From the IMG/VR virus record IMGVR_UViG_2938983465_000007: DNA of 64,000 nucleotides, one strand, 5' to 3'. Positions 530-9,476 of this stretch are shown here, piece by piece. The notes under the pieces are model-generated. The model was not told where the DNA came from and ran no database searches. It worked only from the letters and a program-made list of their open reading frames with translations. The position numbers were made by a program, and so were the translations under genes. Numbering within the stretch: position 1 is the first letter of the stretch; every line of letters starts with the position of its first letter. This DNA comes from an uncultured virus (IMG/VR IMGVR_UViG_2938983465_000007). Its lineage: Duplodnaviria > Heunggongvirae > Uroviricota > Caudoviricetes.

Positions 530-620
530 AGGGTGACCCGGGCGGGGAAGCTCCGGGGCGGTTTGCACAGCACGTGCATCAATCGATGCCGGACCGCCTT
601 GGCGGATCTCGAACACCATG
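497..620 (-). ncRNA. Candidate late-leader small RNA carrying a GUGCUGUG seed
   Basis: Possible promoter TTTCGG-17-TACAAA (654-626, minus), nested hairpins, terminator at 497-529. Confidence 0.4.
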
Positions 621-669
621 GCGGCTTTGTACCCCCCGAACGGAAAAACCGAAAGGGGGGAATTATCGG

Positions 670-1227
670 TTATCCCGACACGGGCTGACGGGGGCTCGCG
701 GGGGCTGACGGGGGAGCAATTGCCGACGAACGGTATTCACCATTTACCCCGCGTACGGCTTTGCCACGCCGTGCAGCAGTGCGCCGCCGCTCGGCCTTCC
801 GGAGCGCCTTGATCGCCTCCAGCGTGCCGGCATGCCGTCGGGTCAGTTCGCATAGCACCAGCTCATGGAGGCGCTGTACCCAATTGCGATAAGTACGGTC
901 GGTGATTTCCCCGACCTCAAGTGCCGCGATCTGCTGTTTGACGGTGCGCGGAGGACAACTCAGATAGCGCAAGCGCGCCAAGCGCGCGAGACATGCGCCT
1001 TCCTCCCCGCGCCGTTCGATCGCATCTATGCATGCCTGAACCTCGCGCGCACGATGATCGACGGAGGCTCCACCGAGCAACACACGCGAACCAGGCTCGC
1101 CGCGCGGCGGCGCGCCCTGCCACTCAATCAAACCCGCCAGGCTGCTGGATATGGAACTGCATCCCACCCCATTACGGCCGATCTGCGCACTCCAATGCCG
1201 CATCAACACTTCGATCTCTTCAATCAT
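670..1227 (-). CDS. Putative late-gene antiterminator/activator (Q-like position)
   Basis: Start MIEEIEVLMRHW; C-terminal HTH-like segment (RTVKQQ...TDRTYRNWVQRLH); between replication and lysis genes. Confidence 0.6.
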   Translation of the reverse strand: MIEEIEVLMRHWSAQIGRNGVGCSSISSSLAGLIEWQGAPPRGEPGSRVLLGGASVDHRAREVQACIDAIERRGEEGACLARLARLRYLSCPPRTVKQQIAALEVGEITDRTYRNWVQRLHELVLCELTRRHAGTLEAIKALRKAERRRTAARRGKAVRGVNGEYRSSAIAPPSAPASPRQPVSG

Positions 1228-1566: not shown

Positions 1567-4305
1567 TCACGTCGTGTGCCCCTTCACATGGTCCCAACTG
1601 TCCACGTTCCAGCCCGCGAGCTTGGCCCGCGCCCGCCACTCGACCACGTGCGCACCCAGCGCGGCCGAGGAAGGGGATGGGGGCAGGAAGGACTCCGGGT
1701 CCTCAGGGAAGAAGAACGCCGCGAACCGACGGTTGCTGCCGTCCGTCCAGGGAATTGGCCTGGTCTTCTCGATACTTGCCGTGCTGATGAACAGACTGAA
1801 CTTCGTGTGGCTTATCGAATGCTCCTTGTTCTGCTGGCACCACTCCAAGAACAGCGCGTAGAGATCCTTGCTCATGCATGCCCCCCACAGCCCGTGTCCG
1901 AGTTCACCGCTACGCCAGAGGTGAACGAACGTCTGCCAGGTGGACCTACTCAAGGCCACCAGGCGTTCGCGTGCCGGCGTGCTCGGTGGCTTGGTCTGGG
2001 GGTCGAAGTCGCCTAAGTCCTGGGCCAGCAGCCAGGCATATAGCGCTTCGACGCCGCCATTGGCCAACTCGTGCTTGATCGCCTTCTGCCTGGCCTCCGG
2101 CAGCTTTTCCTCGGGCCACATGACCAAGAACCGCCGATCACCCTCGCTGATTGGCCAGGGCATGATTTCGTTGGAAAGGAACACAGCGTTCATGTGGCTG
2201 GCTTCTTCCCAGCCGTTCACGAACTTGCTCTCGATGCGCACGGTCTGACCGGTGATCAACTGCTTGATCTTGCCGACCTGGTTGTAGCGCTGGTCCCGGC
2301 TGACCACTTCCTCGAACACCGCCCACAACTTGCCGCTCTGCCAGGCATTGAAGTTCCCCTCAAGCTGGGTCTGCCCAACCGTGGCGGAATACTGACCATA
2401 CAGGCGTCCCATCACGACGGAGAACAAGAGGCTCTTGCCTGACCCCTCCATCGTCGAGTGCATCAGCACCGCCGTGTCCATCTTCGCGCCGGTGTGCTGC
2501 AGCGGATACGCAAGCCAGCGCACCAGCCACTGCATCGAGTCCTCAGCGTGGTTGCACAGAAAGGCGATCAGCCAGCGGAGGTTCTCGCACGCCGCATCAT
2601 CGCGCTTGGGCTCCAGCGGCAGGCCCTCGAACGTGTTGATGCATGTCTTGGTGTCGCACGTCATCGTCGGGTCAAAGACAATGTCGGCAACGTCTACCAC
2701 CCGGCGCTCCGGGCTGTTGAGCCAGAGCGAGTAGGCATCGCCCAGGGCCATCTTCACTGCGCCCTCGGGCACACGCCGTTTCTTCGCCAGGTCCCACACG
2801 TCCTTGGTGCCATCGATGTAGACGTAGCGCACCGCTGGAGGCATGCTCATCGGCCCGACGGCCTTTCCGGCCATGGACCGGGCTCGCTCGATCTCCTTGA
2901 CCTGCTCTTCGCTGATGCGCTTTTTCTTCTTCTCGTCGGTAACCTCCGACCACTCCTTGAAAACCTTCTGGCCCACCAGGGCGACGAAGGCGGTCTTCTT
3001 CATCTTCATCGCCTTGTCGATGTCCCACACGTGGGTTGTCCCCTCGACCAGGGCGTAGCGCCGCAGCGCCTTGGCCAGAGTCAGGCCCTCCCCCGCCCCC
3101 CTGTCATCTGCGGCGTCGCCGTCGGCATCCACATCTTCGACCGATGGGGAGCGGGGAAGCTCCTTGGCCGGGCTGGGGGGCGGCTCATCGCCGCTAAGCA
3201 TCTGGTCGAACTGCTCCAGCGCCTCGCGAACACTGGGTGCCCTGGACTCGCGCTCGATGCCCAGTAGGCGCGCCGCGGCCTTGACCGCCTCGCCCTGGTT
3301 GCCGTTGTGGTCGAGGATGCAGAACACGTCGAACGCGTCGTTCTGGTGGCCGTTGGCGAGAGGGTCTGAGCCATGGTGTGAATACACCCGCCCCTCGCTG
3401 ACCGTGACGCCCGGCAAGCCGGTGCTGCTCTGCGGACACAGCCACTTCTTCCCACGCTTGAGGTAGCCATGCGCCTCGAGCAATGCCTCGACATCGTGTG
3501 CCCGGTTGAAGGCATCGATAACCGACCCAGCGCTACCAGCCGGAGCCAGCCGCTTCGGCTTGGTAACCTTCTTCGGTTTCTGCACCGGCGCCCAAGGGCA
3601 TGCCGCCTCGGCGTCACGCTTGAAGATGCCCCAGTTCTTCCAGATGTTCAGCAGGTTGTCCGGCAATACCGGTAGCCCCTCACCCTTTGGCGGGTTGCGC
3701 CAGGTGTACGGTCGCCCGGTGCCAGGATGGATGGAGGGTGGCAGGACGTCCTGCACTAGGCCTGCGCGCAGCTCGAACACGGTGAAGCGCTTCAGGCTGT
3801 CGGCCAGCACCTGCATCTTTGTCTGCTGCTCGGCATCCCCCTTCTCTTTCGCTGCGAGGATCGCCGCCTGCGCGAGCTTGAACTTGGAGCCGTCCGGGTC
3901 CTTCTCGTTGGGCCAGCTCAGTGAGTGCCGACTCAGCTCAACCCCATCCGGCACCTGGAACAGAATTCGGAAGCGCTCCGGATTCCCTACCACGGTGGGG
4001 TAGGCTACCGGCAACGCATCCAGATCCAACCCGAGGCAGTCCCACAGCACCTGGCGAGTGGACGGGACGTCGTCGACATCCAGCGAGCAAACGCGACTGG
4101 GGCCGAGTACGGCCCCCATGTTGTGCTTCGGATGCTTGGACCAGAAAGCCTCAGCCTGGGCAGCATCGGTGTAGTAACCACCTGGCCTCTGCCAGGCCTT
4201 GCCCTTGGGGATCTTGTTCCCCGGTTCGATGACTACCAGCGCGATGCCTTGTTCGACATACCAGCGAGCCCACTCGCTACGTAGACTATCTTCGCCAGGC
4301 CTCAT
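1567..4305 (-). CDS. Bifunctional primase-polymerase / SF3 helicase replication protein
   Basis: 912 aa; N-terminal prim-pol motifs (LDVDD, LPPSIHP); C-terminal Walker A (EGSGKS) and Walker B (VFEE). Confidence 0.88.
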   Translation of the reverse strand: MRPGEDSLRSEWARWYVEQGIALVVIEPGNKIPKGKAWQRPGGYYTDAAQAEAFWSKHPKHNMGAVLGPSRVCSLDVDDVPSTRQVLWDCLGLDLDALPVAYPTVVGNPERFRILFQVPDGVELSRHSLSWPNEKDPDGSKFKLAQAAILAAKEKGDAEQQTKMQVLADSLKRFTVFELRAGLVQDVLPPSIHPGTGRPYTWRNPPKGEGLPVLPDNLLNIWKNWGIFKRDAEAACPWAPVQKPKKVTKPKRLAPAGSAGSVIDAFNRAHDVEALLEAHGYLKRGKKWLCPQSSTGLPGVTVSEGRVYSHHGSDPLANGHQNDAFDVFCILDHNGNQGEAVKAAARLLGIERESRAPSVREALEQFDQMLSGDEPPPSPAKELPRSPSVEDVDADGDAADDRGAGEGLTLAKALRRYALVEGTTHVWDIDKAMKMKKTAFVALVGQKVFKEWSEVTDEKKKKRISEEQVKEIERARSMAGKAVGPMSMPPAVRYVYIDGTKDVWDLAKKRRVPEGAVKMALGDAYSLWLNSPERRVVDVADIVFDPTMTCDTKTCINTFEGLPLEPKRDDAACENLRWLIAFLCNHAEDSMQWLVRWLAYPLQHTGAKMDTAVLMHSTMEGSGKSLLFSVVMGRLYGQYSATVGQTQLEGNFNAWQSGKLWAVFEEVVSRDQRYNQVGKIKQLITGQTVRIESKFVNGWEEASHMNAVFLSNEIMPWPISEGDRRFLVMWPEEKLPEARQKAIKHELANGGVEALYAWLLAQDLGDFDPQTKPPSTPARERLVALSRSTWQTFVHLWRSGELGHGLWGACMSKDLYALFLEWCQQNKEHSISHTKFSLFISTASIEKTRPIPWTDGSNRRFAAFFFPEDPESFLPPSPSSAALGAHVVEWRARAKLAGWNVDSWDHVKGHTT

Positions 4306-4544
4306 ACCGCACCCGACTTAGTCTGCAAGCGGTATCCACGACGCACCTCCCTGCGCTGCTGGCACTCAACGCAGCAATCACACCCAGGCACCGCCAGGCG
4401 GCGCGCTGGGGGGATCTCGCTGCCGCAGTCATCGCAGATCGTCGCGCTGATACTGTACGCCGGCGCCGGACGGGGTCTAGAAGCGAGCGCCGCCTGTAAA
4501 TGGAACTCCTCCAGTTCGGAGGCGCGATCGAGGATGTCACCCAT
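4302..4544 (-). CDS. TraR/DksA C4-type zinc finger protein
   Basis: DILDRA N-terminus; CDDC...IPPARR...CVECQ. Confidence 0.9.
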   Translation of the reverse strand: MGDILDRASELEEFHLQAALASRPRPAPAYSISATICDDCGSEIPPARRLAVPGCDCCVECQQRREVRRGYRLQTKSGAV

Positions 4545-5037
4545 TGGCTCTGTCCTCCAGATCCTGCTCCATTGCCTGGCGCGCGCCGGCCATGATGCCC
4601 AGGACAGCCCGAATCACATTCGCACCGTGGTACTCCAGATCGGCGACCTCGGCGGGCTCCCAGCGGTTGTCATCCGCACCTTTATGCAGACTGGCAACAA
4701 ACTCGCCTTCGCGCTGCAGCAAATCCCCGACCGCCTTCAGGGCGGAAGCCGTGGCATTGACCGCCTCAGGCCGATACCAGACAGCACCGGCTGGGCGCAT
4801 CAGCGCGTCCAGCAGGCGTGGATCCTTGGTCAGGCGGATGATGTCTTCGAGTTCGTCGGGGGTGGGCCACCGGCGTTCCTCGTCGAGCTTCAGTTTCTTC
4901 TGCAGGTCCTCATAGGGCAGGACCATGTCGTGCGCCAGGGAGGTCACCCCCCCCTTGTAGTCGCGCCCTGCGCGGTACAGCGCCTGGCGGAGATCGAATA
5001 CCGGACCGGCGTCCGGCAGCAGGTCTTTCCGGCTCAT
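4537..5037 (-). CDS. Phage regulatory CII-family protein
   Basis: Start MSRKDLL after GGAG; HTH-like region; downstream of cro. Confidence 0.65.
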   Translation of the reverse strand: MSRKDLLPDAGPVFDLRQALYRAGRDYKGGVTSLAHDMVLPYEDLQKKLKLDEERRWPTPDELEDIIRLTKDPRLLDALMRPAGAVWYRPEAVNATASALKAVGDLLQREGEFVASLHKGADDNRWEPAEVADLEYHGANVIRAVLGIMAGARQAMEQDLEDRANG

Positions 5038-5062
5038 AACCGTAAATACTCCTTTTACGGTG

Positions 5063-5091
5063 TAGCCATCGAGCGGGGCTCGCCCTACTCT
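5063..5091 (+). promoter_or_regulatory. Putative sigma70 promoter antisense to the cro-cII transcript (pRE-like position)
   Basis: TAGCCA-17 nt-TACTCT; preceded by inverted repeat ACCGTAAA...TTTACGGT over the cII RBS. Confidence 0.5.
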
Positions 5092-5097
5092 ATGACC

Positions 5098-5195
5098 ACG
5101 ACCGATGCATGTGCTGTGTCGTCGTAAGCCGTCCAAGGGGGTGAGAGCCCTTGAATGGCACCCGCCGGCGCGGGAGGTGAGAGTCCCGCGCCGGC
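5098..5195 (+). ncRNA. Candidate three-hairpin regulatory RNA (seeds GUGCUGUG and 2x GGUGAGAG)
   Basis: Stems ACGAC/GTCGT, GCCGTCCAAGGG/CCCTTGAATGGC, GCCGGCGCGGGA/TCCCGCGCCGGC; the last two have identical loops; functional strand not certain. Confidence 0.5.
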
Positions 5196-5200
5196 ATCCT

Positions 5201-5437
5201 TCAAGCCGCTTGGGCAGTAATGGATTCTTCGGTAATCCGATAATGCTCAAGCACTGCGGCAAGACTTACCTTGCCCTCGCTTTCCCGGAAGAGGGCCTTG
5301 ATCAATGAAACACTTGGATCTTTGCTCGCGTACTTGACGTGCAAACGCAGGTAGTTGACAGAAATCGAGCAGCGCTTCGCATAGGACCGCAGTTGGTCAT
5401 CGCCCATCTGGTCGATGTATTCGCGTAGTTTCATCAT
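5201..5437 (-). CDS. Cro-like repressor
   Basis: Small HTH-like protein divergent from cI-like gene; GGAGG RBS. Confidence 0.75.
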   Translation of the reverse strand: MMKLREYIDQMGDDQLRSYAKRCSISVNYLRLHVKYASKDPSVSLIKALFRESEGKVSLAAVLEHYRITEESITAQAA

Positions 5438-5456
5438 CGTATGCCCTCCTACCGAC

Positions 5457-5517
5457 ATTTAACCACAAAGGTTAAATTTGGCAATACCCACAAGGGCATT
5501 CACCCGAAAGGTTAAAT
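5457..5517. promoter_or_regulatory. OR-like operator cluster
   Basis: Palindrome ATTTAACC-ACAAA-GGTTAAAT (5457-5477) and degenerate copy ATTCACCCGAAAGGTTAAAT (5498-5517) between cro and cI. Confidence 0.75.
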
Positions 5518-5533
5518 GCACAACACTTCACGG

Positions 5534-6181
5534 ATGAATATTTCAGATACCAGACTCACCAACCTCCGGCGGATCATGGCCGAGCGCAAGCTTCGCTCAA
5601 CCGACCTCGCGGACCTGCTCGGCAAGAGTCAGGCTCAGGTCAGCTCGTTCGCGGGAAAGAACCCCAGTAAAGGGATAGGAAACCAGATCGCTAGGGAGAT
5701 AGAACTAGCACTGTCGCTTCCGAAAGGGATGCTTGATCTGTCTTTCGGTCCCAGCGAGCAGGGCAATGCAGTAGTACTTAGCTCCACAGGGAGGAAGCTG
5801 CCAGTGATCGGATCGGTAGCTGCAGGGAAATGGTGCGAAGCGGTCGACACCTTCTTACCAGGCGATGCGGAGGAATGGATCGAAGCACCAGGGCCAGTAG
5901 GCCCTAATGCATTCATTCTGAAAATTGAAGGTCTAAGCATGCTGCCCAAGTTCTCCGATGGCGAAAAGGTAGTCATAGACCCCTCGCTGGAGGCCTTGCC
6001 TGGCCACTACGTTGTCGCCAAGAAAACGAAGTCGCAGGAGGTCACCTTCAAGCAGTTGCGCAGAGAAGGTACCGAGTACTTCCTCTACGCCCTCAATCCT
6101 GACTGGCCAGACCGAATCATCAAGCTCACCGAGGAGTGGCAGATTTGCGGCCGCGCCCGCTGGAAGATCACAGACCTTTGA
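5534..6181 (+). CDS. CI-like repressor (HTH + S24 autopeptidase)
   Basis: N-terminal HTH; VAAG cleavage site; EGLSM catalytic Ser; TFKQL catalytic Lys; start could be 5516. Confidence 0.93.
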   Translation: MNISDTRLTNLRRIMAERKLRSTDLADLLGKSQAQVSSFAGKNPSKGIGNQIAREIELALSLPKGMLDLSFGPSEQGNAVVLSSTGRKLPVIGSVAAGKWCEAVDTFLPGDAEEWIEAPGPVGPNAFILKIEGLSMLPKFSDGEKVVIDPSLEALPGHYVVAKKTKSQEVTFKQLRREGTEYFLYALNPDWPDRIIKLTEEWQICGRARWKITDL

Positions 6182-6199
6182 ACCTCTTTAGTTGAATCG

Positions 6200-6224
6200 A
6201 GCCCGCGTGATGCGGGCTTTTTTC
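6200..6224 (+). terminator. Intrinsic terminator after cI
   Basis: AGCCCGC-GTGAT-GCGGGCT followed by T-run. Confidence 0.85.
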
Positions 6225-6254
6225 TGTCCCCTCAGCCAGCCATCCGCAAAAAAA

Positions 6255-6306
6255 CAACCCCAACAGGTTAACAGTCTCTTGACTACTTAACCTTTGTGGT
6301 TAATAT
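6255..6306 (+). promoter_or_regulatory. pL/OL-like early promoter with operator
   Basis: TTGACT at 6279 and TAATAT at 6301; TTAACCTTTGTGGTTAA (6287-6303) is the exact reverse complement of the OR core. Confidence 0.8.
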
Positions 6307-6344
6307 CAGGTGCGTACCCCCTCTCTCACTTCCGGAGTACGCAA

Positions 6345-6554
6345 ATGCAATCGGCACAGCACACGCCCAAAGTCCGCTGCCAGGTGCTACTTCACCCGGC
6401 TGCGGCCACCAGCCCCAGAGTCGTTCAGGAGATCCAAGCCCGAACCGGCCTGCTGGTAATCGTTAGCACCTCCCACCGCGCCTGCCTCACCCAGCCGCGG
6501 CCTGCTGCCCACAGCACGGATGACGAGTTCGGTCCGTGGGGAGGTGCGGCATGA
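6345..6554 (+). CDS. Small hypothetical phage protein, first gene of early operon
   Basis: GGAG RBS, MQSAQH start; ATGA overlap with next gene. Confidence 0.6.
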   Translation: MQSAQHTPKVRCQVLLHPAAATSPRVVQEIQARTGLLVIVSTSHRACLTQPRPAAHSTDDEFGPWGGAA

Positions 6555-6856
6555 AGCCCACCATCGAAGAACTGCTCCTGCAGATCCTTTCTACCTGCCT
6601 GCTGATCGACAGCCAGGGCAAGTGGAAGGCCACCTTCTATCTGTCCTGCATCGACGCGGACGTCTCCGTTTCAATCTACCGGGCCGACGACACCGCGCCG
6701 TTGGGAGACCGCGTTGCCCATGCCTACGAGTACGCCTTCATCGGCGCCGACACTCGTGGCCGGCGCAGGAACCTCACGGATGACGAGTCCCGGCAGAACC
6801 TGGCGATGCTCCTAACCCTCACCCAGCGCTACCTCAGCATGGAGGCCGCGGCATGA
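6551..6856 (+). CDS. Hypothetical phage protein
   Basis: GGAGG RBS; ATGA overlaps at both ends. Confidence 0.7.
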   Translation: MKPTIEELLLQILSTCLLIDSQGKWKATFYLSCIDADVSVSIYRADDTAPLGDRVAHAYEYAFIGADTRGRRRNLTDDESRQNLAMLLTLTQRYLSMEAAA

Positions 6857-7422
6857 AACCCTTCCTGATCGGCCTCACTGGCCGCGCTCGCTCCGGCAAG
6901 GACACTGCGGCGAACTACCTCGCCGCCCAGTTCGGCCTGCTGGTCTATGCCCTAGCCTCGCCGCTGAAGCTGGCCCTGCTCGACATGCTGAACTTGCCCG
7001 GGTCCGCCCTGGAGGGCTCGGCCAAGGAACAGCCGCTGCCGTGGCTGGGCAAGTCGCCGCGTGAACTGATGCAACTGCTGGGCACCGAGTGGGGCCGCAA
7101 CTTAGTGCATCCACAGCTCTGGCTGCTGCTGGCCGACATGAACCTATCCAACCACCTGGAGGCGATGCCCCAGGCCCAGGGGTTCGTCATCAGCGACGTG
7201 CGTTTCGACAACGAGGCGGACTGGATCCGCGCCAAGGGCGGCGTAGTCGTCCACCTGCGCCGACAGGTTGCCGCCGAGGTCGCCGCACACAGTAGCGAGT
7301 CGGGCATCACTCCGGGGGCACGCGACCTGTTCATCAGCAACGACGGCAGTCTGAATGACCTCTACCAGACGCTGGACGAAGTGATGGCACTGCTCCATCT
7401 CCGCGCAAAGAACGCAGCCTAA
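6853..7422 (+). CDS. Deoxynucleoside monophosphate kinase family protein
   Basis: IGLTGRARSGKDT P-loop; SPRELMQLLGTEWGR; ISDVRFDNE; HSSE motifs. Confidence 0.88.
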   Translation: MKPFLIGLTGRARSGKDTAANYLAAQFGLLVYALASPLKLALLDMLNLPGSALEGSAKEQPLPWLGKSPRELMQLLGTEWGRNLVHPQLWLLLADMNLSNHLEAMPQAQGFVISDVRFDNEADWIRAKGGVVVHLRRQVAAEVAAHSSESGITPGARDLFISNDGSLNDLYQTLDEVMALLHLRAKNAA

Positions 7423-7433
7423 GAGGGCCAGCC

Positions 7434-7718
7434 ATGAACCGGGATATCCGCCAAGCAGCTGCCGCCCTCGGCGTCAGCGAACGGGACCTGCGCAACCACC
7501 TGCGGCAGCACAAGGACCTGAACCAGGACGGCACCCTTGCGGCCAAGCACATAGGCCAGGGCCACCTGTTCATGGATCCGCGTTCGCGCTGGAACCCGAG
7601 GCTGGGCCAGTACACCCACTACAGCGTGGTGATGGTCACCGAGGCTGGAATCTCCTACCTGGCCAAGCGTCTCGGCGTGTCCATCACCGTCACCCAGCAC
7701 AAGGACGACGTGGCATGA
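7434..7718 (+). CDS. Antirepressor KilAC-like domain protein
   Basis: AAAALGVSERDLRNHLR...VTEAGISYL pattern. Confidence 0.65.
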   Translation: MNRDIRQAAAALGVSERDLRNHLRQHKDLNQDGTLAAKHIGQGHLFMDPRSRWNPRLGQYTHYSVVMVTEAGISYLAKRLGVSITVTQHKDDVA

Positions 7719-8083
7719 ATCCAACACCGAACCCCATCGCCGACGCCGTCGGCACGCTCAAGCTGATCGGCATGCACTTCGCGGCACCGACCGCCTACCC
7801 GGCCGACGCTCTACAAGCCGCCGCGACAGAGTGCATCGACCGCCTGGCCGGCCAGCCCCAGGAAGTAGCTCAACTGGCGCTGCTCTATGCCGCCTTGGTG
7901 GCCATCACCCCTCGCGGCTGGCTACCCCACGTCACGCTCACCAACGACGAAGTGCGTCCTTACGGCGCCATAGTCACCGACGCGGCGGGCAACATCGCCG
8001 CCAGCGGGCTCGGCAAGACAGTCAACGGCCTAGTCGCCGTGGTGTCGGCCCGCCTACCGGTGGAGTGCGAGGAGGTTCTATGA
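7715..8083 (+). CDS. Hypothetical phage protein
   Basis: Coupled ATGA overlaps within operon. Confidence 0.65.
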   Translation: MNPTPNPIADAVGTLKLIGMHFAAPTAYPADALQAAATECIDRLAGQPQEVAQLALLYAALVAITPRGWLPHVTLTNDEVRPYGAIVTDAAGNIAASGLGKTVNGLVAVVSARLPVECEEVL

Positions 8084-8316
8084 CGACATTCGAGCAGCTC
8101 TACCAGCAGTGGGGTACAGCGACGCTCACCCTCGCCCAGGTGCGGGCAGCGTACTTCCCGCACCTGAAGACCGATAAGCGCCTACGGGCTCTGATCAAGA
8201 GTGGAGAGGTGGCACTGGTCACCCGCAAGCTCACGACGTCCCGGCTGGAGGAGCCGCTGGTGTACCTGACGGACCTGGCCGAGTTCCTCGACGCTAAGGG
8301 CGTCAAGGCAGCCTGA
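8080..8316 (+). CDS. Pyocin activator PrtN-family protein
   Basis: MTTFEQL...VRAAYFPHL...VYLTDLAEFLD pattern; GGAGG RBS. Confidence 0.75.
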   Translation: MTTFEQLYQQWGTATLTLAQVRAAYFPHLKTDKRLRALIKSGEVALVTRKLTTSRLEEPLVYLTDLAEFLDAKGVKAA

Positions 8317-8534
8317 TCGACGCGCCCCGGCGCAACCGGGTGAAACGACAGGGAGGAATGGCAGCCATGTAGACATCCCAACCGGGGCAGGTCAGCCCAA
8401 CTGGCCGAGCTGGATCAGCAGTCACATATGGCGGCGTATGTGAAACCGGAAGGCCTGGCGACGGGCCCTCCCCATAGGGCTCTCCACGAGAGCCCTATGG
8501 GGAACTCACCCAAACAAACTATGAGGCACAGCAC

Positions 8535-8666
8535 ATGAAAAGACCCTTTCTCGACACCCTGCGCGACGTTGAGTCCGGTGGATTGCTGGACGAACTCACC
8601 GACGCCCAACACAGCCTGATCGACGCCATCCGCCTAACCAACAAAGCCAGAGAACTGACCATCTAA
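8535..8666 (+). pseudogene. 43-aa ORF, probably a truncated phage gene
   Basis: GAGG RBS; MKRPFLDTLRDVESGGLLDELTDAQHSLIDAIRLTNKARELTI*; resembles the N-terminus of a longer common prophage protein (recall). Confidence 0.45.
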
Positions 8667-8741
8667 CCCATCCATCAACACGCCGCGCCGCCAGACTCTC
8701 ACACAATCCCTGGCGGCGCGGCGTCCAACAGGACACAGCAC

Positions 8742-9476
8742 ATGCCTATCACCTATCAGTTCATTATCGGCGGACTGGCTCTCGCCTGCGCCGCGGTTCT
8801 GTTCTTCGCACTCCGGGCCTCTCGCGCCGCCTATGCCAACGGCTACAACTCCGGCCACGACGATGCATCCAGAGCCTGTGAACTCCGCATCGAAGACCAG
8901 CAGGTCCACATTCGAGCGCTCCAGGCCGACCTGGGCGCGATGCAAGCGAAACACATCAACGATCGTGCCGCACTGCTTCTGCAGGCCGACCAGGTACTGG
9001 ACAGGAACAACGCCCGCAACCAGTACGCTCAGTTTCAGCCAGACGACGTAGACACCCTCACCACCTCCGCGAAGCTCCTTCGATTGGCCGGAGACGTGTT
9101 CGCGCGCCTGCACGCTAACGACAAGGCTGAAGCGGCCCACGCCGCGCAGGAAGCAATACGTGCGCTGCTCCGGCGCATCCCGGCCGCACTCGCCGCTGAA
9201 GTGCCCCCGCCTCTTGATACGAAGCTGTTTGACTTCCTCGAGCAGCATGCAACCGGCTCCGCGGACTTCGGCACCTTCACCTTGAGCTTCGAGGTCGGCG
9301 ACACCTTCCGGGGCACCAGGACGATCCGCGAGGCCGTCACCTACGCCTTGGTCAAGGCCGAGGAGTCCGAAATACCTGCGGCCAACCTGCTGCCCGCCAA
9401 GTCGACAGATGGACTCTCCGCCTGGGAGGCGGTTGACCTCGACTACACCGGCGACACCGCGCCGATGTGCATGTGA
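8742..9476 (+). CDS. Hypothetical phage protein, N-terminal membrane anchor plus coiled coil
   Basis: 244 aa; AGGA RBS; hydrophobic N-terminus. Confidence 0.75.
   Translation: MPITYQFIIGGLALACAAVLFFALRASRAAYANGYNSGHDDASRACELRIEDQQVHIRALQADLGAMQAKHINDRAALLLQADQVLDRNNARNQYAQFQPDDVDTLTTSAKLLRLAGDVFARLHANDKAEAAHAAQEAIRALLRRIPAALAAEVPPPLDTKLFDFLEQHATGSADFGTFTLSFEVGDTFRGTRTIREAVTYALVKAEESEIPAANLLPAKSTDGLSAWEAVDLDYTGDTAPMCM

Follow-up and report, generated by a model that had tools for sequence, protein, structure and literature searches.

The DNA considered here is a stretch of 64,000 nucleotides (nt), hereafter the window, from an uncultured virus (IMG/VR record IMGVR_UViG_2938983465_000007); it holds a lambdoid prophage of Pseudomonas aeruginosa that, over the regions searched, is 95.5–100% identical to the phages Meadow, Presto, Lodos and Turba. 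Its "rightward" cro–cII transcript lies on the minus strand of the window and its "leftward" early operon, which begins at 6345, on the plus strand. At issue is the spacer between the gene in the cro position and cII, where 5098–5195 of the plus strand probably encodes a small RNA (sRNA) of about 100 nt, antisense to the cII leader, that would pair in trans with genes of the leftward early operon; on the sequence evidence set out below, we give this reading a probability of about two in three (0.68). The immunity region is laid out as follows (E, expectation value; aa, amino acids; SL, stem-loop):

4537–5037, minus strand: cII gene of the Phage_CP76 family (Pfam PF06892, E 9.1e-14; phrog_101, E 6.2e-28)
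5063–5091, plus strand: putative sRNA promoter with conserved hexamers, TAGCCA (5063–5068), 17 nt, TACTCT (5086–5091)
5098–5195, minus strand: spacer between cro and cII on the rightward early transcript and cis target of the candidate sRNA, to which it is fully complementary, separated from the start of cII (5037) by 62 nt
5098–5200, plus strand: candidate sRNA of about 100 nt, with SL1 (5098–5125), SL2 (5128–5159) and SL3 (5164–5195)
5201–5458, minus strand: gene in the cro position, 85 aa, without family match
5516–6181, plus strand: CI-type repressor, helix-turn-helix and peptidase S24 (Pfam and PHROG matches)
6199–6219, plus strand: terminator-like site behind the CI-type repressor, from a signal scan
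6279–6306, plus strand: PL-like early promoter (TTGACT, 16 nt, TAATAT) that overlaps a TTAACC...GGTTAA operator-like palindrome

The hexamers upstream of the candidate had been pointed out in a preliminary description of this DNA, all of whose strings and coordinates are present in the sequence. The −35 hexamer TAGCCA is found in 85 of 99 unique homologous sequences, and the −10 hexamer is TATCCT in 79, TACTCT in 13, TATTCT in 5 and TATATT in 2, TAnnnT being common to all 99. Moreover, the spacer between the two hexamers is 17 nt long in all 99, yet it occurs as 52 distinct sequences. These hexamers put the candidate start at 5098, which is an A on the plus strand and the first base of SL1. 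The putative −35 hexamer is overlapped by a mini open reading frame (ORF) in the cII leader (ATG GCT ACA CCG TAA, 5055–5069, minus strand), the ATG of which is gone in at least 10 of the 99 relatives (−35 variants TGGCCG and TAGCCT); because of this loss, a promoter at this place fits at least as well as a mini-ORF. Another mini-ORF, beginning from CACAGCAC-ATG in the cII leader, was rejected: the ATG is ATT in the relative LPPA56, and the frame is unconserved.

The preliminary description had folded 5098–5195 into three hairpins with one and the same loop in the second and the third, and this was borne out. The plus strand of 5098–5205 folds into three hairpins at −59.0 kcal/mol (z-score −4.99), a stability attained by none of 200 shuffled sequences, with the seed CAUGUGCUGUG in SL1 and with exactly GGUGAGAG in the loops of both SL2 and SL3. 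A covariance model built from 64 relatives matches 5098–5169 (plus strand) with 40.6 bits (E 5.5e-6); compared with the commonest form, which has two hairpins, the P. aeruginosa form has an extra third one. After the last hairpin, a run of at least three T is present on the sRNA strand in 51 of 64 sequences, as against at most two T on the other strand in all 64.

The motifs were expected, in the preliminary description, to be conserved in related prophages, and they are. A scan with a pattern taken from the cII-leader copy detected the element in at least 120 viral contigs (a lower bound), always in the leader of a gene for CII (Phage_CP76), and it occurs in 28 species-representative genomes, 26 of Pseudomonas and 2 of Metapseudomonas. 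A search with the CII protein gave 75 loci, with proteins that are 66–99% identical, and ACAGCAC was present in all 64 unique leaders for which there was enough upstream sequence. The gene in the cro position differs among phages while the element in the spacer is unchanged, and hence the element belongs with the cII leader. Some distant cII leaders (L180, L181, L196 and L213–L226) have two tandem ACAGCAC seeds and another arrangement of hairpins; the architecture of the sRNA therefore spans a wider range than the two forms analysed here.

The strand on which this structure is maintained can be read from an alignment of 64 distinct copies of the commonest, two-hairpin form, taken on the strand antisense to cro–cII and comprising 20 pairs. 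As many as 98.8% of the cells are paired and 8 pairs have changed on both sides; the covariation observed was reached by none of 500 shuffles, and slid controls were only 26–60% paired. On the sRNA strand, the cells comprise 1180 Watson–Crick pairs, 85 G-U pairs and 15 mismatches, as against 1180, 7 and 93 on the cro–cII strand. A stem finder that accepts Watson–Crick pairs only, which is free of composition bias and replaced a naive comparison of energies, gave 70 A-C against 5 G-U on the cro–cII strand. Judged from these substitutions, the structure at the cII leader is kept on the plus strand of the window, where it is conserved and covaries in the manner of an sRNA structure. If this is correct, it provides a clean case in which strand-specific G-U conservation separates an antisense gene from a sense cis element.

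In the preliminary description, four sites were reported along the early transcript here called leftward, at which complements of the loops and of the seed succeed each other, together with a fifth copy, on the minus strand, in the cro–cII leader. The fifth copy is indeed there: the sense strand of the cro–cII spacer holds the same two-part motif as the trans sites, and every copy of this motif is sense to its local early transcript. The sites in the leftward operon and the genes behind them are:

6311–6363, plus strand: target site B (site 1 of the preliminary description), a 5′-terminal hairpin (6311–6343) with CUCUCAC (6323–6329) in its loop
6345–6554, plus strand: first gene of the leftward operon and target gene of site B, 69 aa, phrog_13491, without Pfam match
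6486–6517, plus strand: site 2 of the preliminary description, inside a coding region, unsupported as a target
8469–8537, plus strand: target site 3, a hairpin (8469–8503), an unpaired CUCACCC (8505–8511) and CACAGCACAUG (8527–8537) over the ATG at 8535
8535–8666, plus strand: target gene of site 3, a 43-aa ORF that is a short form of phrog_204
8680–8745, plus strand: target site D (site 4 of the preliminary description), a 15-base-pair hairpin (8680–8724) with ACUCUCAC in its loop
8742–9476, plus strand: target gene of site D, a 244-aa protein with a hydrophobic N-terminus (phrog_28364/34956)

Expected numbers and shuffles were computed over the window. The two-part motif (CTCTCAC, 15–45 nt, CACAGCAC) occurs three times against 0.01 expected, a figure reached by none of 100 shuffles, which is the enrichment over a shuffled background that had been anticipated; CACAGCACATG likewise occurs three times against 0.10 expected (0 of 100 shuffles). 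Taken singly, the motifs behave otherwise: CACAGCAC is found 9 times against 3.63 expected (a count attained in 2 of 100 shuffles), and 5 of these copies lie within 5111–8741; CTCTCAC is not enriched (5 against 9.23 expected), yet 4 of the 5 are in this region. CTCACCC is at chance (12 against 11.53 expected) and therefore, alone, lends no support to sites 2 and 3. Single motifs are weak evidence, and combinations of motifs are strong evidence.

At site B, the ATG (6345) is followed by the seed match CACAGCACA (6355–6363), and the hairpin is modest (z −1.90). The hairpins of site 3 (z −6.17) and site D (z −6.64) are much more stable than their shuffles; the counterparts of site 3 in relatives of the G and T classes (see below) have a full cognate loop motif behind the hairpin, and at site D GACACAGCACAUGC (8732–8745) covers the ATG at 8742, the string GACACAGCACATGC at the same positions being a perfect 14-nt complement of 5107–5120. 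The reverse complement of site D is also the second-best match of the sRNA covariance model (23.9 bits), which suggests that the targets arose as copies of the leader. Co-folding with the sRNA opens SL1, with free-energy changes (ddG) of −10.2, −15.7 and −16.2 kcal/mol at sites B, 3 and D, respectively, compared with 0, 0 and −7.0 kcal/mol at three unrelated gene starts; loop–loop contacts are beyond the reach of the co-folding program. When accessibility is ignored, as in an RNAduplex scan of the whole window, GC-rich 90-mers all pair strongly (mean −63.9 kcal/mol). Three of the four reported sites (1, 3 and 4) hold up. Site 2 was rejected as a target: its fold has a z-score of −0.70, it forms no co-fold pairs, its CTCACCC is at chance, and it lies in a coding region; CACAGCAC is absent from the matching place in the relatives L002, L003 and L004.

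In the relatives, a two-part site was defined as a loop motif at most 60 nt upstream of ACAGCAC. Over 4 kb of the leftward operon at 85 loci, ACAGCAC occurs 211 times on the PL (messenger RNA, mRNA) strand as against 4 times on the opposite one, and ATG follows immediately in 90 of the 211. In a set of 92 distinct loci, there are 174 two-part sites, spread over 88 of the loci: a single site is found in 20 of these, two sites in 50 and three in 18. To them are added 72 further ACAGCAC-ATG sites without the full loop motif. Where an ORF can be called, 330 of 371 sites are at a start codon or within 10 nt of it. Three layouts recur. In layout B, the motif is displayed in the loop of a hairpin at the 5′ end of the transcript; the start codon comes next, with the seed 7–10 nt inside the gene. 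In layout D, the hairpin whose loop holds the motif is GC-rich and precedes the Shine–Dalgarno sequence, beyond which the seed abuts the ATG. The third is seed-only or shifted, as exemplified in the window by 8505–8537. The mean length over which a site perfectly matches the sRNA of its own phage is 11.9 nt at D-type sites (155 sites), 10.8 nt at seed-only sites (66) and 10.0 nt at B-type sites (110), with a maximum of 16 nt, as against 7.9 nt at 85 other occurrences of ACAGCAC. Predicted pairing of the seed beyond the 7-mer is, on these averages, confined to translation starts.

The 287 unique ORFs behind the sites form 8 clusters, and for none of them is a function known. One consists of the operon's first gene (phrog_13491). 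Another, the largest with 107 unique proteins, is a family of 114–261 aa with a hydrophobic N-terminus (phrog_34956/28364), to which the gene at 8742 belongs. Phrog_204 and phrog_210/DUF2303 account for two clusters each, and the remaining two are a small membrane protein and an excisionase-like protein. The 43-aa ORF behind site 3 corresponds in alignments to the N-terminal part of the phrog_204 proteins of relatives (around 115 aa), and the short form is found in the phage of the window and in Lodos. A PrtN/excisionase-like protein is encoded at 8080–8316 (plus strand), directly before the 218-nt gap that contains site 3.

The co-evolution of seed and targets had been proposed as a check, and its outcome is that the seed CACAGCAC is constant, usually abutting the start codon, while the loop covaries with the targets. 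The loop motif falls into at least six classes. The first four are CTCTCAC, CTCTGAC, CCTCTAC and CTCTTAC, while CUCUAAC, CUCUAUU and a mixed form came to light in the CII-based set. In LPPA56, for example, CCUCUAC(A) replaces CUCUCAC(C) both in the two sRNA loops and at the target sites, and in L045 and its relatives CUCUGAC is found throughout. The locus of the T class (CUCUUAC) was initially a 624-nt fragment; its flanks were fetched to test the prediction, and all three of the two-part sites in them proved to be CUCUUAC. (L125 was rejected as a chance match to the search pattern for the T class.) The cognate 7-mer of the four classes is present at all 174 two-part sites of the 92 loci. When any CTCTNN is counted, 262 of 289 sites in 141 distinct loci are cognate, whereas permuting the sRNAs among the loci (n = 2000) gave 191.9 on average and at most 213. 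The minority classes account for 18 loci, in which 46 of the 50 sites match the class of their own sRNA and only one has the majority motif; the B site of L169 has one mismatch. Moreover, the two loops of one sRNA are of the same class in 10 of 10 aligned three-hairpin sequences.

Some further features of the region may be mentioned. The Shine–Dalgarno sequence of cII lies in the loop of a conserved 8-base-pair hairpin (ACCGTAAA / TTTACGGT; 5040–5062, minus strand), which stops directly at the ATG of cII; most relatives have this hairpin too, with differing loop sequences. Directly after cII, a DksA/TraR-type zinc-finger protein is encoded (4302–4544, minus strand). Far out on the cII side, CACAGCAC immediately followed by GTG is found at 566–576 (plus strand), just past a terminator-like hairpin (505–529) and between two minus-strand genes; this arrangement recurs in L002, L003, L004, L024, L045 and L126. 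In the window, a 44-aa ORF (574–708, plus strand) begins at the GTG. The site could be either an extra seed-only target or the result of chance. CACAGCAC is also present at 4043–4050 (plus strand), opposite the primase gene (1567–4305, minus strand), and is conserved there in L002 and L024; copies of this type probably make up most of the 59 on that strand and side in the 85 loci, and that at 4043–4050 is likely to reflect the coding constraint on the primase rather than to be a target.

A mechanism can be proposed on this basis. The candidate sRNA would be transcribed from its own promoter (5063–5091), within the spacer between the gene in the cro position and cII. In cis, it would be fully antisense to the cII leader. 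In trans, its GGUGAGAG loops would kiss CUCUCAC, which is mostly displayed in a hairpin loop 20–40 nt upstream of a start codon; SL1 would then open, and 9–14 nt of it would pair with (GA)CACAGCAC(AUGC) at or beside the start codon, such that the binding of ribosomes to the genes at 6345, 8535 and 8742 would be blocked. The seed would be constant in the whole family, and positions 5–7 of the loop motif would set the specificity class, as in the c4 RNAs of P1 and P7. The sRNA may act as a second immunity layer in the lysogen, or else at an early stage of infection. The motifs, the folds, their conservation, the strand specificity of the structure, the promoter and terminator signals and the covariation of loops and targets are all observations; that the sRNA is made, that it pairs, that the pairing represses translation and that it does so at one of these times, we infer.

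Several results weigh against this reading. The promoter matches the consensus only weakly, at 7 of 12 positions in the window, where a sigma-70 scan was silent, and a scan of the relative L004 likewise flagged none; it may be that the promoter requires an activator. The tail after SL3 in the window (AUCCUUCAA) is a poor U-tract, and a signal scan flagged no terminator-like site behind the sRNA in either the window or L004. The preliminary description had placed GUGCUGUG mostly in the first loop, but in the minimum-energy fold only 4 of its 8 bases are there, the other 4 being in a weak A-U/G-U stem. One of the control gene starts (9485) itself co-folds with the sRNA at −7.0 kcal/mol. The hairpins of the target sites have no strand preference (15 G-U against 11 A-C in the D type, 0 against 5 in the B type), and in the naive fold-energy comparison, the strand opposite the mRNA was favoured in 128 of 144 target windows, a preference treated as composition bias because the favoured strand is rich in G and U. 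As to the loop classes, 27 of the 289 sites are non-cognate; in L162 and L170, the promoter-proximal site alone is cognate and the distal ones have the motif of a neighbouring class, a pattern that may be read as mosaic recombination. The relatives are not independent events. Finally, no transcript of the sRNA has been seen: the one RNA run available as raw reads (X22) gave 0 reads, and the 14 RNA runs that contain parts of the stretch do so as strandless Logan contigs without ends or levels. In the 4 of 23 listed runs that were compared, the contigs of X1 span all 30 bins, and those of X3 and X4 begin only inside cI, so the prophages of these two probably differ upstream.

The preliminary description had left two readings open, a trans-acting sRNA and cis-acting sites of the nut or put kind, at which antitermination of the polymerase would depend on an N-like protein or on the RNA alone. 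The position of the copies does recall the latter, in that one lies just behind the gene in the cro position and another at the extreme 5′ end of the PL-like transcript, all are sense to their own transcripts, and a constant CACAGCAC with a phage-specific hairpin loop resembles boxA and boxB. However, the structure of the cro-side copy is conserved on the wrong strand for this (85 against 7 G-U; 70 A-C against 5 G-U), and that strand has a promoter and a U-tract of its own. There are, moreover, three or four sites per phage instead of one per operon: 68 of the 88 site-bearing loci have two or three, all in the single leftward operon, the 330 sites noted above are at or close to start codons, and the match to the phage's own sRNA runs into the start codon. 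The order of hairpin and then linear element is also the reverse of that in nut, and the first gene of the PL operon has no Pfam match. Cis-acting sites of this kind are thus very improbable, and it is the sRNA that the strand-specific G-U pairs, the promoter and terminator signals and the matched changes in loops and targets favour. These matched changes alone would fit equally well with a protein reader, because all copies share one transcript orientation: a phage RNA-binding translational repressor, similar to RegA of T4 or to a coat protein, could read the loop and CACAGCAC at the start codons, including the sense copy in the cII leader, with no antisense RNA, and the classes could stem from co-evolution with it. 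The target hairpins, almost all Watson–Crick and without a strand signal, would suit such a protein. Against it, no candidate protein was identified that varies between classes (C and TAC phages share the same N-terminus in the product of the first PL gene), and perfect matches to the leader of the same phage are as long as 16 nt, which exceeds the needs of a protein site. Above all, the protein would leave unexplained three features of the leader copy, namely its strand asymmetry, its promoter and its U-tract, and because of these the balance tips towards an antisense RNA. We consider the protein quite unlikely.

Another possibility is that the sRNA is real but that its logic is reversed or confined to cis. 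It would act on the cII leader (by cleavage, attenuation or transcriptional interference, in the manner of OOP), with the PL sites serving as sponges, or the rightward transcript would titrate it off the PL sites. Its full complementarity to the cII leader, the existence of sRNA, leader and cII as one conserved module beside unrelated cro-type genes, and the resemblance of the reverse complement of site D to the sRNA gene, which makes the targets look derived from the leader, are in keeping with this. However, sponges do not need to be placed at start codons, and the seed covers or flanks AUG at 330 of 371 callable sites, with matches that extend into coding sequence. Both versions, taken together, are unlikely; they differ from trans repression by the sRNA in emphasis rather than in kind, and the two effects may coexist.

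The antisense sRNA could also be part of an immunity code in the temperate phages of Pseudomonas, an idea that we put forward tentatively and regard as somewhat doubtful. A prophage sRNA made constitutively would silence several early genes where their copies are leaky or incoming; the bases after CUCU would define at least six mutually orthogonal classes, each of which would escape the RNA of the others; and the target module would be a copy of the sense strand of the cII leader that has spread before unrelated genes. Operator-like palindromes (TTAACC-N5-GGTTAA) occur at 5460–5516, between cI and the gene in the cro position, and at 6288–6304, over the PL-like promoter. There is none near the candidate sRNA promoter, and it is the lack of the repressor's operator-like palindromes there on which the constitutive expression in this proposal is based. 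The rightward transcript would be a perfect sponge for the sRNA, and activation of its promoter would therefore release the leftward operon, thus coupling the two early operons through RNA.

If the sRNA is indeed made and active, it would constitute an undescribed RNA layer in the control of early genes in lambdoid phages across Pseudomonas, in which a single regulator, its seed constant and its loop code exchangeable, acts on cII in cis and, in trans, on between two and four genes of the other early operon. The idea of an RNA-defined heteroimmunity, which comes from the c4 RNAs of P1 and P7, would be extended to a large and common group of phages; phrog_13491, phrog_204, DUF2303 and the membrane-anchored family would be revealed as functions that need to be silenced; and natural orthogonal pairs of sRNA and target would be available for use in Pseudomonas.

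The preliminary description did not recognise the motif as belonging to a described family, and this still stands. A search of the whole window against Rfam gave 0 matches at the gathering score, and one of 4900–8900 with E up to 10 gave 6 weak matches, none of them to a phage antisense RNA family and none at 5098–5195. A full-text search of the literature found no description of this RNA, with subscription journals outside its coverage and an older description therefore possible.

The closest known systems are the c4 RNAs of the immI regions of P1 and P7. According to one account (PMC8198154), full repression of ant requires the C4 antisense RNA, which has a binding site upstream of icd–ant. 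The candidate resembles c4 in being a small phage RNA with two exposed segments, each directed against one of a pair of sites around the place where ribosomes bind; in targets B, 3 and D, the predicted pairings (GGUGAGAG with CUCUCAC, and the SL1 seed with CACAGCAC(AUG)) flank or cover that place. It also resembles c4 in that RNA and targets have matched changes between related phages; Citron and Schuster reportedly found in 1990 that the c4 RNAs of P1 and P7 differ in their pairing segments and targets, with heteroimmunity as the consequence. The c4 RNA is cut from the same transcript, and the same strand, as its single target, upstream of which it lies. The candidate, in contrast, is encoded opposite the cII leader, in an operon other than that of its trans targets, with promoter-like and terminator-like signals of its own and with two to four trans targets as well as a cis target. 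The host genus and the phage type differ as well, and the C4 family of Rfam (RF01695) is unmatched even at E up to 10. In the case of the CI RNA of the satellite phage P4, to which an RNA of N15 is related, processing is from the leader of the same transcript and action is through premature termination of transcription. The likeness here lies in a small immunity RNA of which a single sequence has complements at more than one place in the early transcript; the differences are that the present sites are on start codons, that the RNA is encoded antisense, and that it has no Rfam match.

The OOP RNA of lambda is, as stated in another paper (PMC7067206), antisense to the 3′ end of cII and inhibits the synthesis of CII. 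The candidate would likewise be a short RNA, transcribed from a promoter of its own towards the rightward early transcript and complementary to cII mRNA. The likeness is limited to position, and no OOP model was matched in Rfam; unlike OOP, the candidate overlaps the 5′ leader of cII and matches several genes of the other early operon. OOP is not known to have trans targets. The nut sites of lambda consist of boxA followed by the boxB hairpin, with one site per early operon, upstream of terminators, and are used by a protein of the N family, and the put sites of HK022 are two-hairpin RNAs on the sense early transcripts that act in cis on the polymerase. The present elements share with these their similar positions on both early transcripts and the combination of a constant element with a phage-specific hairpin loop. 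They depart from nut in that the hairpin precedes the linear element and in that there are up to three sites per operon, at start codons (no search for the boxA consensus was made), and from put in that the cro-side hairpins are maintained on the antisense strand, by the same 85 against 7 G-U pairs. Compared with the known phage antisense immunity RNAs, then, the candidate would be unusual in having a target in cis as well as several in trans, along with a loop code that comprises at least six classes.

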